The translations under genes were made by a program, and so were the position numbers. DNA of 10,911 nucleotides from a virus (lineage: Duplodnaviria; Heunggongvirae; Uroviricota; Caudoviricetes): IMG/VR virus record IMGVR_UViG_2541047120_000012; one strand, given 5' to 3'. This document shows, piece by piece, positions 6,270-10,911 of the stretch. The notes beneath the pieces were generated by a model. The model made no database searches. It was not told the origin of the DNA and saw only the letters and a list, made by a program, of their open reading frames with translations. Position 1 is the stretch's first letter. The number at the start of each line of letters is the position of its first letter.

Positions 6270-9092
6270 ATGACGGCAGAGTACATCAGGGACTGGCAAC
6301 AACCGCGCCACGCAGTGGGGCGTGAAGGAACGGGGATCCCCGCTCCTGAATCCGCGCTTTCCTCCTGGCTGGATGCCTACCGGGTAGAGAACGAGCGCCG
6401 CCAAGAAATGGCTGATGCGGCGTTCTCCGCAACGCCGCTGGGCAACCTGATTAATAAAAGCCTGGACGCACAGGAAAAACAGGACAAAACCATCACACTG
6501 GCAGGAGACGCCAGAAAACAGGCACGCGGTGCGGTGGATGAAGCCATGGCCTCGCTGCGCCTGCTGCCGTCCTATCTGCGCGATCCGCTTATTCGCCACC
6601 TCTCCTTCCTGCGCAAAAAACAGGAAGCCGATCGTCAGAAAGGCAAAAAGAGCTGGCAGGCTGAACGCTACGCGCGCGGAAACCTGCGCAAAATATTCGA
6701 ACGTCTGGAGCGCACCGATCACCGCTGGCTGACACAGGGTTATCGCTCCCTTGCCGGACGCGAACGCCTGGACGATTTGCTTTACCTGCCGCAGCTCAAC
6801 AAACACCAGATACAGACGCTGGCCACCATGACGGCGGCGATGTTCAGCAGCACCTTCGAAAAACTCTGCGATGGCTTTGGCGCGACCGATGGCGAACTGA
6901 CCATGGATGTAACGCTGAAGGCGTATCAGATGCTGGCCCGCATGGCGTTACACCTGCACGCCATGCCTCCACATTATGACGCACTGACAACAGACAAAGA
7001 CCGGAGGAACGAACCGGACACGGAGCTGCTGCCGGGCGCAATCCTTCGCCTGACCTGTGCGGAATGGTGGAAACGCAAACTGTGGCTGTTACGTTGCGAG
7101 TGGAGAGAAGAACAACTCCGCGCCGCCTGTCTGGTTTCCAGAAAAACATCGCCCTATCTGAGCCAGGACGCGTTAAGCGAGTTTCGCGCACAGCGCGAGA
7201 AAACACGCGATTTCCTGAAAAGTTTCATGCTGGAAAACGAAGACGGGTTCACGATTGATCTCGAGACAGTGTATTACGCGGGAGTAAGTAACCCGGTTCA
7301 CCGTAAGGCAGAAATGATGGCCACCATGAAGGGGCTGGAACTTCTGGCCGAAGCCCGTGGCGACAAAGCGGTGTTTCTGACTGTCACCTGCCCGTCAAAA
7401 TACCACGCTACAACAGAGAACGGTCATCCGAATCCCAAATGGAACGGGGCCACCATGCGCGACTCCAGCGATTACCTGGTTAACACGTTTTTTGCGGCGG
7501 TCCGCAAGAAACTGAACCGCGACGGCCTGCGCTGGTATGGCATCCGCACGGTGGAGCCTCACCATGACGGCACCGTGCACTGGCATATGATGGTCTTTGC
7601 TCATCCGGAAGAAATCGACACCATTGTGTCCCACACCCGCGATATTGCCATTCAGGAAGATCGTCACGAGCTGGGCGATGATATTACTCCGCGCTTTAAG
7701 GCGGAGTATGTCGACGGCTCAAAAGGCACGCCAACCAGCTACATCGCCACCTACATCGGAAAAAACCTGGACAGCCGCGCCGTGGATGGCATCGACCCGA
7801 AAACAGGCAAACCACGCGTTGACCACGAAACCGGAAAATCAATGACCGAGAGCGTGGAACGCGCCATTGGCTGGGCGCGCCTTCACCGGGTCCGCCAGTT
7901 CCAGTTCTTTGGCATCCCCTCCCGTCAGGTGTGGCGTGAACTGCGTCGCCTTGCCAGCCAGATGGCACGCAACCCGGAAGGCCCGCAACGGCTGAAGGAT
8001 GACGCAATGGATGCGGTTCTTGCTGCCGCTGATGCCGGATGTTTTACCACCTACATTGAGAAACAGGGAGGCGTACTTGTTCCACGCAAGGACTACCTGA
8101 TTCGCACCGCCTACGACCTCGCAGATGAGCTGAACGATTACGGCGAACAGAGCGTACAGATTTACGGGATCTGGTCACCACTCATCGGGGAATCCTCCCG
8201 TGTGTGCACGCACCCGGATAACTGGAAGCTGGTAAGACGTAAACCGGGAGTAGAAGACAGCGCCCGCGAAAATGGTTTTGACCTTCAGGGCGGCCCTGCC
8301 GCCCCTTGGACTCGTGGCAATAACTGTCCCCGTGTACAGGAAACGGACAACAACGGGACAGAACAGCCGGAAGAACGGCCAGCACCGTGGCCGCAGCTTC
8401 CTGACGGCGTTGACGTGAACGAATGGATGCGCTCACTGAAACGGCACGAACGCCGGGCGCTGATGCGTTCGCTTCGTGACAAACAGGCAAAAAACAGCAG
8501 TGATGAAATGCAGAGCTGGACACAGAGCCGCAAACAGCAGCGGCCTTTGCCTGATAACCACGAATTACTCGCTAAAGAATGGCGGGAGTCTGCTGAATCT
8601 CTCGGCCTGCATATCGGTGAACAACAGATGCAGCACCTGTTACGGGGCGGCAGTCTGTACGTTGACGGCAGCATCATTGCACCGCAGGGATTTGAAATTG
8701 TACGCAAACCGGATACCCGCCCGGACAGCCGAATCACGCAGCTCTGGCAGCGCCTGAGCCGTAATCATGGCGTAAGCAGCACGGAGATCCGCCATAACCC
8801 GGTCGCCAGCTATCTGGCACAGCTGGGGGCATCAGACCCTGAAGCCGCCGCACGCCTGGCATCCACACTTCAGCAGGACCAGAACACCATGAAAACACCC
8901 GTTACCGTGCTTTCTGACATGCTGCGCGCCATCCGCGACGCAGAGCACGCACAGAGAATCAGTGAAACCACTGAACGCGCCAGCCGCAAAGCAGACCTGC
9001 TGCGGGGTGGCCTGACCAGTGGAAACAAAAAACAGACAGAAACGGGACTCACAAATCCCGTAAATGAGCAAAAAACGCGCCGCGATATATGA
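6270..9092 (+). CDS. Phage P2 GpA-like rolling-circle replication initiation endonuclease (HUH superfamily), 940 aa
   Basis: HUH motif VHWHMMVF (His437/His439, nt 7578-7586) and two-tyrosine active site SYIATYIGK (Tyr491/Tyr495/Lys498, nt 7740-7763), matching the phiX174 A / P2 A YxxxYxxK arrangement. Gene order repressor, cox, small genes, A is that of P2/186. Confidence 0.8.
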   Translation: MTAEYIRDWQQPRHAVGREGTGIPAPESALSSWLDAYRVENERRQEMADAAFSATPLGNLINKSLDAQEKQDKTITLAGDARKQARGAVDEAMASLRLLPSYLRDPLIRHLSFLRKKQEADRQKGKKSWQAERYARGNLRKIFERLERTDHRWLTQGYRSLAGRERLDDLLYLPQLNKHQIQTLATMTAAMFSSTFEKLCDGFGATDGELTMDVTLKAYQMLARMALHLHAMPPHYDALTTDKDRRNEPDTELLPGAILRLTCAEWWKRKLWLLRCEWREEQLRAACLVSRKTSPYLSQDALSEFRAQREKTRDFLKSFMLENEDGFTIDLETVYYAGVSNPVHRKAEMMATMKGLELLAEARGDKAVFLTVTCPSKYHATTENGHPNPKWNGATMRDSSDYLVNTFFAAVRKKLNRDGLRWYGIRTVEPHHDGTVHWHMMVFAHPEEIDTIVSHTRDIAIQEDRHELGDDITPRFKAEYVDGSKGTPTSYIATYIGKNLDSRAVDGIDPKTGKPRVDHETGKSMTESVERAIGWARLHRVRQFQFFGIPSRQVWRELRRLASQMARNPEGPQRLKDDAMDAVLAAADAGCFTTYIEKQGGVLVPRKDYLIRTAYDLADELNDYGEQSVQIYGIWSPLIGESSRVCTHPDNWKLVRRKPGVEDSARENGFDLQGGPAAPWTRGNNCPRVQETDNNGTEQPEERPAPWPQLPDGVDVNEWMRSLKRHERRALMRSLRDKQAKNSSDEMQSWTQSRKQQRPLPDNHELLAKEWRESAESLGLHIGEQQMQHLLRGGSLYVDGSIIAPQGFEIVRKPDTRPDSRITQLWQRLSRNHGVSSTEIRHNPVASYLAQLGASDPEAAARLASTLQQDQNTMKTPVTVLSDMLRAIRDAEHAQRISETTERASRKADLLRGGLTSGNKKQTETGLTNPVNEQKTRRDI

Positions 9093-9140
9093 AGCGCGCA
9101 CAAAACAGGCAAAAGCGGGATTTAAAAATCCTGTAACCGA
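9031..9140. repeat. Two 37-bp direct repeats (9031-9067 and 9104-9140), each with an internal palindrome (CGGGA...TCCCG; GGATTT-AA-AAATCC); candidate parC-like centromere/operator
   Basis: Aligned by eye: AACAG(A/G)CA(G/A)AA(A/G)CGGGA-N5-AAATCC(C/T)GTAA. The first repeat is inside the 3' end of the GpA gene, the second in the 76-bp gap before parM. Confidence 0.4.
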
Positions 9141-9168
9141 TTAATTAATCAACATAAGGAAAAGCGAC

Positions 9169-10128
9169 ATGAAAATTTGTATCGACGACGGCTCCACCAA
9201 CATCAAGCTGGCATGGACTGAGAACGGCGAACGCCGCAACGCCATCAGCCCGAACAGCTTCAAGTCGGAATGGTCTGCGCCATTCGGTGGCACGCAGCCC
9301 GCGAACTACATGCTTGATGGCGTGCGCTATGGTTTTGATCCGGTCAGCGATCGCTTTGTCCAGACGACCGACACGCAATACCAGTACAGCGATGTGAATG
9401 TAATTGCCATTCATCACGCGCTGGTCAAATCAGGCATCACACCACAGGAAGTGGATGTGGTTGTCACCCTGCCACTGAGCGAGTATTTCGATACAAACGC
9501 ACAGCCGGACATGGCCAACATCAACCGCAAAAAAGCGAACGTCATGCGCCCGGTGGAGTACCAGAACGGCGAAGCATTCACTATCCGTAACGTACGGGTT
9601 ATGCCTGAATCCATTCCTGCTGGCTTTAAGGCACTGGCTGACATGAGTCCGTTTGAATCCCTGCTGATTGTGGATTTGGGCGGAACCACGCTGGATGTGG
9701 CAAAGGTTCAGGGGCAACTGGCAGGTATCAGCCAGGTGTTTTGCGATCCACACGTAGGCGTTTCTCTGATGGCCGATGCCGTACTGTCGGTGATGGCCAC
9801 TAACGGTATGCGCACCAGTCACCACATCGCCAATACCATTATCGAACATCGCCATGATGAAGCCTGGCTGCGCCAGCACATCCACAATGACGCGCATTAC
9901 GCCAGCCTGATGGCGGTTATTCGTGAAAAGGAAGAAACACTGAAACAACGCGTGATCCGCGCGCTGGCGGTTTTTTCGGGTTACGGGCGGGTGATGGTTG
10001 TCGGTGGCGGGGCGGAGATTGTGGCAACCGCTATCCGCGAAGCCTGCGGAGTTAATGCGACTTTCATCGCGGACGGGGTGCCACAGTTTGCTCTGGTTAA
10101 TGGGTTGTACGCAATGAACAAGGAGTAA
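9169..10128 (+). CDS. parM: Actin-like plasmid segregation ATPase ParM (StbA family), 319 aa
   Basis: N-terminus [35 protein letters not shown] closely parallels plasmid R1 ParM ([21 protein letters not shown]...ISPNSFKREW), as does [15 protein letters not shown]; later glycine-rich motifs (DLGGTT, VVGGGA). Confidence 0.85.
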   Translation: [319 protein letters not shown]

Positions 10129-10132
10129 ACCA

Positions 10133-10447
10133 ATGACGACACCAACCAGACGGATAAGTTTCTATCTGAAGCCCGCCGCCGTCAAGAGTGAACAGGAGGC
10201 GTGCAATTACCTCGATAGCCTGCCAGCCTCCGAACGCAGCCGCGCGCAACGCGCGGCCTTTCTGGCTGGGCTAGCACTCATAAAGCGCAACCCAGCATTT
10301 GCCTACTGGATGGCCGAATGGCCAGAGGACAACCTCCCCTTCAATACCGTTAGCATCAAGGAAACATACCAGGCTAATCAGCCTAGCGGAGTTGAATGCA
10401 ATTTTTATAAAATAAAAAAGAATATTCAGACCTTATTCCCAGAATAA
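10133..10447 (+). CDS. parR: ParR-like (StbB) centromere-binding adaptor, 104 aa
   Basis: RRISFYLKP...YLDSLPASERSRAQRAAFLAGLALIKRNP parallels R1 ParR (RRTIAFKLNP...LDSIPQGERSRLNRAALTAGLALYRQDP) as recalled. Immediately downstream of parM with RBS AAGGAG. Confidence 0.75.
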   Translation: MTTPTRRISFYLKPAAVKSEQEACNYLDSLPASERSRAQRAAFLAGLALIKRNPAFAYWMAEWPEDNLPFNTVSIKETYQANQPSGVECNFYKIKKNIQTLFPE

Positions 10448-10468
10448 TCTGATAATTGTATGTGAACT

Positions 10469-10911
<443 letters not shown>

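Follow-up and report, generated by a model that had tools for sequence, protein, structure and literature searches.

What would a temperate phage of the P2 family do with a plasmid-type partition system? The question arises from a 10,911-nucleotide stretch of viral DNA (IMG/VR record IMGVR_UViG_2541047120_000012; the whole stretch is referred to here as the window), in which genes for an actin-like ParM and its ParR adaptor directly follow a P2-type replication initiator. A first reading of the letters (the original prediction) had taken this coupling as a sign that the ancestral element could be maintained extrachromosomally, as a phage-plasmid or as a plasmid built from a P2-type replicon, and had named intracellular organisation by filaments as another use of such proteins in phages. 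Window positions 423–10911 are 99.9% identical to the chromosome of Escherichia coli O157:H7 strain TR01, and many E. coli O157:H7 chromosomes match the part with the two genes (9100–10500) at 100% identity. The gene pair is intact by sequence and recurs at the same place in diverged P2-like phages, and filaments for intracellular organisation fit the evidence better than the plasmid reading does.

An intact partition gene pair behind a P2-type initiator

Three genes form the core of the locus:

6270–9092, plus strand: gpA, P2-type rolling-circle initiator of 940 amino acids (PF05840, E = 2.4e-131, residues 179–503), annotated as a replication endonuclease
9169–10128, plus strand: parM, actin-fold ATPase of 319 amino acids (PF06406 StbA_N, E = 1.8e-82; PF21523, E = 3.5e-69; both end to end)
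10133–10447, plus strand: parR, adaptor of 104 amino acids (PF10784 Plasmid_stab_B, E = 7.7e-29; phrog_2515 over the full length)

ParM aligns with ParM of plasmid R1 (PDB 1mwk) over residues 2–316 (phmmer, E = 7e-93), the two being 47% identical in a MAFFT alignment, and it matches phrog_691, 'partition protein'. Its structure matches include PDB 4a62, which we take to be the ParM–ParR peptide structure. The actin-fold motifs are invariant when ParM is aligned by MAFFT with that of R100 and four phage homologues: phosphate-1 (IDDGST-IK), PESIPAG with the catalytic glutamate, phosphate-2 (DLGGTTLD) and adenosine (GGGA). The ATPase motifs, whose absence would have told against the original prediction, are thus intact, and pairwise dN/dS values of 0.01–0.17 among seven P88-like copies indicate strong purifying selection on parM.

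The parR gene starts 4 nucleotides past the parM stop codon, has its own AAGGAG and is complete, being left uncut by the insertion sequence (IS) that begins at about 10480. The N-terminal strand of ParR, RRISFYLKP, is kept, and its N terminus is predicted to adopt a ribbon–helix–helix DNA-binding fold; the pB171 ParR structure 2jd3 is a weak match (E = 0.012, ParR residues 6–58). Identity to R100 ParR is 31%. The C-terminal KKNIQTLFPE lines up with the C-terminal KKNAMKLIN of R100 ParR, and the motif K-K-N-x-x-x-L-F-P is conserved in all phage ParRs. In R1, the C-terminal peptide of ParR docks on ParM.

Both genes already carry the annotations ParM and partition protein in RefSeq and in Escherichia phage P88, which excludes a chance resemblance. 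As judged by sequence, parMR is a real, intact ParM/ParR (type II) partition gene pair with a predicted activity. The gene identities given in the original prediction are borne out by Pfam, phmmer and structure matches, and the similarity to R1 parMRC that it had described is real.

At least two parR alleles exist, the O157 type (window 10187–10447) and the P88 type (P88 9874–10131). Overall they are 53% identical, with codons 1–18 and the final residues, LFPE, in common. Between the allele types, parM and the dyads upstream of it (see below) are 97–99% identical, and many E. coli genomes match the O157 query only to parR codon 18.

P88 is described as a complete, mitomycin-inducible P2-like phage (PMC5285337). 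Its genome is 96.8% identical to window positions 5291–10187 (about 4.9 kb) and has the order gpA, parM, parR, four small open reading frames (ORFs), then the portal and terminase genes. In P2, the slot flanked by gene A on one side and by portal and terminase next to cos on the other holds orf91, tin and old, and we take the gpA-to-portal position of parMR in P88 to be this same slot. The predicted placement directly behind a P2-type initiator stands. The gap between the end of gpA and the start of parM is 76 bp. The catalytic domain of GpA is 34% identical to P2 A and 94–99% identical to those of P88-like phages. The presumed nick sequence of the P2 ori gave no match within 3 mismatches, which carries no weight because that sequence may itself be wrong. 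PF05840 ends at residue 503, and the following roughly 430 amino acids (residues ~504–940; window 7779–9092) have no Pfam match; across relatives, GpA varies in length from 785 to 940 amino acids.

The phage ParM proteins form a clade of their own

In a large protein database, a gap separates the ParMs of the E. coli clade (at least 92% identity) from the next homologues at about 54–63%, which come from Hafnia and Plesiomonas (62%), Serratia (58%) and Enterobacter (54%). In all four, parM is part of a P2-like prophage and is bounded by gpA and the portal/terminase genes, with a PF10784 ParR of 116–134 amino acids encoded behind it, so that the position next to gpA is constant in five diverged lineages. 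Two chromosomal ParM homologues at about 50% identity have the surroundings of a plasmid or an integrative and conjugative element (Rep3 with ParAB; TraG and TraU). The diverged relatives were taken from looked-up contigs encoding homologues from the protein database; a scan of genome contigs with ParM returned only three near-identical loci, one of viral contigs with the Hafnia ParM returned no locus, and an alignment-based scan returned E. coli-type loci only. A neighbour-joining tree of 108 ParMs places the 17 with at least 54% identity in a single clade apart from the plasmid ParMs, including that of R1, and all clade members whose context was checked are phage-borne.

Pairwise identities between the five phage lineages (E. 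coli type, Hafnia, Plesiomonas, Serratia and Enterobacter) are as follows:

ParM: 52–74%
GpA: 29–55%
Portal: 30–49% (one pair 86%)
TerL: 35–53% (one pair 80%)

ParM is more conserved between these lineages than GpA, portal or TerL. The cassette would be either very old in this part of the Peduoviridae and slow-evolving, or exchanged as a unit into the same slot; both readings argue that it is phage-adapted and not a recent plasmid capture. The sequence 3' of parR varies among the relatives and includes HicAB, a KAP NTPase and small ORFs.

Within E. coli, parM DNA occurs in 1303 of 5426 complete genomes, about one quarter of which thus carry the cassette within P88-like prophages, and its places number 1441 on chromosomes versus 2 on plasmids. 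P88-type gpA is covered to at least 80% in 1320 genomes and parM to the same extent in 1279, so gpA and parM nearly always travel together (~97% co-occurrence). Fourteen phage records hold a ParM of at least 95% identity (98.7–99.1% in most P88/Xuanwuvirus records, 95–97.5% in two), and the next best is phage-plasmid D6 at 48%; with respect to phage records that encode GpA, this ParM is carried by 14 of 382. Only six plasmid records contain the phage-type ParM, all remaining plasmid ParMs being at most 53% identical. The conjugative KPC plasmid pC-Ec2-KPC (IncC, 227,878 bp) contains an IS26-bounded, rearranged P88-like prophage that includes gpA–parM–parR. A contig titled Vagococcus sp. (NZ_JBQPOM010000071.1) has an E. 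coli-type P88-like locus with a 97% identical ParM and is probably a contamination or a mislabelled assembly.

This distribution bears on whether the cassette is an inert relic without function for the phage lineage. The prophage in the window would suit such a view, as it is unable to form particles and has lost its head genes to IS elements; it is an O157:H7 prophage remnant that we take to be Sp13/CP-933T. However, the strong purifying selection, the co-occurrence with gpA and the persistence of the slot in lineages with core genes just 30–55% identical contradict the relic view at the level of the clade, for which we find it scarcely credible, although it probably describes the present state of the O157 copy. 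Since the head genes are gone, parMR in the O157 window is most likely an intact but unused passenger.

Two dyad repeats are a candidate centromere

A partition system of this type calls attention to the DNA upstream of parM, where two repeat copies are found:

9026–9063: candidate parC repeat copy 1, inside the 3' end of gpA; A-rich CAnAAAC stretch and dyad CGGGACTCACAAATCCCG at 9043–9060
9099–9136: candidate parC repeat copy 2, in the 76-bp gpA–parM spacer; ends in dyad CGGGATTTAAAAATCCTG at 9116–9133

This 38-nucleotide direct repeat is the best repeat in 8700–10470 (copies 79% identical, spacing 73), and its first copy overlaps the last codons of gpA. The pattern CGGGA-N8-TCCYG occurs in the window only at the two dyads, and in the 35.8-kb P88 genome only at the two homologous sites and one other. 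Two GGG...CCC blocks are invariant in a MAFFT alignment of the upstream regions from E. coli, Salmonella, Hafnia and Plesiomonas. By manual count, the spacing of the dyads in E. coli, Hafnia and Plesiomonas is 72–73 bp, and they lie roughly 53–60 and 126–132 bp before the ATG. In a set of 95 distinct E. coli-type sequences, substitutions in the dyads are most frequent at the centre (9124 and 9126) and the arms change little, with a minority C/T at 9132. These features make the two dyad repeats a candidate for parC, possibly doubling as an operator.

Another reading of the dyads is that they act as intrinsic terminators on the minus strand or belong to an antisense or structured RNA, parC then lying elsewhere or being absent. 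In favour of it, a terminator-like hairpin with a T-rich run behind it is called on the minus strand at 9061–9042, and the plus-strand A-rich tracts in both repeat copies are T-runs on the minus strand. Yet no promoter-like site that could feed such terminators occurs on either strand in 8700–10470, and the Plesiomonas dyads can pair over 4 bp only. RNAalifold gives no covariation support for the dyads (term +1.68, unfavourable), and Rfam has no match at the dyad site. The changes among E. coli-type sequences fall mostly in the dyad centres, as half-site recognition predicts. We therefore regard an RNA-level function as quite unlikely and continue with the dyads as a candidate parC.

Expression from the early operon is the simplest reading

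Two further elements lie between the second repeat and the parM start codon:

9140–9145, plus strand: ATTAAT block, 24 nucleotides 5' of the ATG and invariant in the five-lineage upstream alignment; may be a weak −10 element
9156–9160, plus strand: parM ribosome-binding site, AAGGA

Any promoter role of the ATTAAT block is putative. We detected no consensus σ70 promoter on either strand in 8700–10470, and a consensus scan gave no plus-strand terminator between gpA and parM. On the simplest reading, parMR would be read through together with gpA, which itself would belong to a repressor-controlled early operon. If so, parMR would be silent under the repressor and on after infection or induction.

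A proposed role on the extrachromosomal phage circle

With moderate confidence, we propose that a working parMR(C) cassette acts on the extrachromosomal phage circle while the early operon is on, either positioning and separating replicating circles or carrying a transient episome into both daughter cells. In this model, parMR would be co-read with gene A and off in the quiescent lysogen; infection or induction would switch it on, at the stage of an extrachromosomal circular genome. Dimers of ParR would bind the two dyad repeats just 5' of parM, and ATP-bound ParM filaments would catch the ParR–DNA complexes through the C-terminal peptide of ParR and push phage circles apart. As an outcome, replicating monomer circles would be spread or positioned in the cell, or a transient episome would reach both daughter cells before integration or lysis. 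Precedents for a role on a transient circle are srpMRC of the SXT/R391 elements and AlpAC of prophage CGP3, both of which lend support to the proposal and are compared with the cassette below.

Several observations weigh against this proposal. A rolling-circle phage with many copies has no obvious need for partition. Co-transcription of gpA and parMR is deduced only from the absence of consensus signals. As to the centromere, parC of R100 has A/C-rich 11-bp iterons on both sides of the promoter, and no R1-like iteron array was found upstream or downstream of parMR; two sites contrast with about ten iterons in R1 and are fewer than in characterised type II centromeres. AA-periodicity at 10–11.5 bp is marginal in the E. 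coli-type loci (p = 0.06–0.08; R100 control, p = 0.012) and absent in the Hafnia and Plesiomonas loci. The Serratia and Enterobacter loci have another layout, with an inverted repeat of about 20 bp that starts with the shared CAAAAAYGGGAAC. Finally, we found no experimental tests of this module in the literature, and no functional data in the literature on CP-933T, Xuanwuvirus, or Peduoviridae and ParM.

A bolder version of the proposal, which we offer tentatively, is that a P2-family clade spanning at least five Enterobacterales genera possesses its own actin spindle. This spindle would either position and disperse monomeric circles for packaging in lytic growth, or support a real episomal carrier state through the rolling-circle replicon, and it would act on a minimal two-dyad centromere that lies partly in the initiator gene, unlike the R1 array.

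The slot itself raises the possibility of an accessory (moron-type) function against competitors, in which ParR and parC of the prophage would disturb the partition of resident plasmids or superinfecting relatives, resulting in incompatibility or exclusion. The place behind gene A is the tin/old position of P2, and such a function would fit the defence cargo that is usual there; the cargo 3' of parR is variable in relatives, and parR has at least two alleles. However, within the slot it is parMR that is conserved and other genes that vary, PADLOC models match neither protein, and no promoter for expression in the lysogen is visible. In addition, the low identity of ParR to its R100 counterpart (just 31%) is accompanied by a lack of iterons in common with R100 parC. 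We consider an anti-competitor function very unlikely and retain the action on phage circles as the preferred reading.

Is the phage maintained as a plasmid?

The original prediction had gone further and invoked extrachromosomal maintenance. In its explicit form, P88-like phages would be facultative phage-plasmids that also lysogenise stably as low-copy plasmids, with parMRC and hok/gef maintaining the episome. The first part of this idea has been put forward before: Pfeifer et al. (2021) class P88 as a putative phage-plasmid owing to these genes, and propose episomal and integrative states (PMC7969092). Several observations agree with such a state. The 34,461-bp circular 'plasmid' record pZ1323PEC0009-2 (NZ_CP148288.1) comprises an entire P88-like genome (int through ogr); the Plesiomonas relative lies on its own 32-kb contig; and a hok/gef toxin gene, a second maintenance trait of the plasmid kind, is located near ogr in both P88 (34928–35068) and NZ_CP148288.1 (1291–1431). 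Moreover, existence as a plasmid prophage is proven for the P2-like phage KS14 (PMC3091744).

By contrast, complete E. coli genomes have 1441 of the 1443 places on a chromosome, and the tyrosine integrase is kept in every relative whose left end was seen. The phage of the 34-kb record is itself integrated, at 99.9% identity, in the chromosome of the sister strain Z1323HEC0067, so excised phage DNA would explain the circular record just as well. A scan of ten window proteins revealed no plasmid-type replicon, gpA (PF05840) being the only replication module. In P2, expression of the early operon leads to activation of the late genes, which makes a quiet plasmid driven by gpA hard to picture. KS14, for its part, has RepB and ParA in place of A (PMC3091744). 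We found neither an extrachromosomal lysogen state nor a plasmid replication module compatible with immunity, the two features that would define a phage-plasmid. Stable plasmid lysogeny is not supported, and we consider a facultative phage-plasmid doubtful. As for the rest of the original prediction, the window proves to be from an E. coli O157:H7 chromosome, and the notion of a plasmid built from a P2 replicon gives way to a decayed, integrating P88-like phage.

The window is part of an IS-damaged P2-like prophage

The window encodes GpA, an N-terminal fragment of the integrase and a helix–turn–helix repressor, and P2 late genes are present in the same source replicon. With GpA, int, a C-type repressor and late genes, the element is a P2-like temperate phage (Peduoviridae, genus Xuanwuvirus); the late genes and the integrase, whose absence would have spoken for a mere plasmid backbone, were both found. 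In TR01, the element is flanked by yecA and the tRNA Leu-Cys-Gly cluster. It begins with int, followed by two small cargo genes, the repressor and the early genes, then gpA, parM and parR, and then an IS3-family element and P2 tail genes. The tail genes past the IS are a G-like assembly protein, U, T, E, FII, FI and a D fragment, with those for the tail sheath and tube among them, and more IS elements follow. This gene order identifies the window as the IS-damaged early region of a P2-like prophage that lacks head and lysis genes. Its boundaries and left part contain the following:

1–423, plus strand: second copy of the IS3-family element, in inverted orientation; breaks the prophage integrase in the strain of the window, the integrase being intact in TR01
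424–997, minus strand: N-terminal int fragment, cut at 423 by the IS
10480–10911, minus strand: IS3-family element; took the place of all sequence 3' of parR (variable cargo, cos and head genes)

Two inverted IS3-family copies thus flank the early region of the prophage. Between int and the repressor are two cargo genes on the minus strand (1003–1350 and 1380–2030), which encode a DUF2511 protein and a 216-amino-acid protein; the latter matches phrog_5825 and has a weak hit to a membrane-protein moron. The repressor has 134 amino acids here versus 93 in the C protein of P88, which implies that the immunity region is mosaic. On the plus strand, 5341–5415 matches isrK in Rfam (63 bits, E = 7e-12) and 5451–5538 matches the C4 antisense RNA (78.5 bits, E = 2e-14), and directly 3' of these matches is an ORF (5595–5825) for a 76-amino-acid 'derepression protein'. 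From its sequence, this arrangement looks like a P1 immI-type, RNA-controlled antirepressor unit in a P2-like early region.

Comparison with known partition systems

The module as such is already known: it is annotated, it is represented in PHROG families and it is the cited reason for listing P88 as a putative phage-plasmid. The O157 window itself is ordinary in this respect, a known annotated module in a decayed prophage. New are the assignment of the phage ParMs to a clade of their own, with one common slot in at least five diverged lineages of P2-like phages, the strongly purifying selection on parM and a concrete two-dyad candidate for parC.

The closest system is parMR of P88 and other Xuanwuvirus phages, which is the same module, with the same position after gpA and the same upstream repeats; the O157 copy differs in having another parR allele and in residing in an IS-truncated remnant. 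ParMRC of plasmids R1 and R100 (stbAB) likewise combines an actin-fold ParM with a ParR of the same Pfam family, a ribbon–helix–helix N terminus (predicted in the phage protein) and a matching C-terminal motif, in the order parM–parR with a cis site (a candidate in the phages) upstream. There, however, ten 11-bp A/C-rich iterons flank the promoter, whereas the phages have two 38-nucleotide dyad repeats, one of which is in gpA; and the R1/R100 system is on a plasmid, whereas the phage cassette is in an integrating phage and its ParM in a separate, phage-only clade.

Phages with both virion modules of the P2-like or myovirus kind and partition genes include Burkholderia phage KS14 and the P1-type D6, the StbA/ParM of D6 being 48% identical to the ParM studied here. 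KS14 is kept as a plasmid rather than integrating (PMC3091744). In both KS14 and the P1-type phage-plasmids, of which D6 is one, a plasmid replicon takes the place of gpA (RepB in the case of KS14), and KS14 uses ParA instead of ParM.

Like the phage cassette, srpMRC of SXT/R391 is a type II locus in a normally integrated element; it is expressed only with the excision and transfer operon and stabilises the transient circular form (PMC4489591). It differs in that SrpM is distant from R1 ParM, SrpR has no homology to ParR and the element is conjugative. AlpAC, from prophage CGP3 of Corynebacterium glutamicum, is required, once the prophage is induced, for viral DNA to be replicated and transported efficiently (PMC4446434, PMC5539076). 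It shares with the phage cassette the combination of an actin-like protein and a DNA-binding adaptor encoded by an integrated prophage, but it belongs to another actin-like family, comes from another host phylum and has no detectable similarity to the ParR family. If the cassette described here does position phage circles or stabilise a transient episome, the principle of CGP3 AlpAC and SXT srpMRC would extend to the P2 family and could be studied in a genetically tractable E. coli model.

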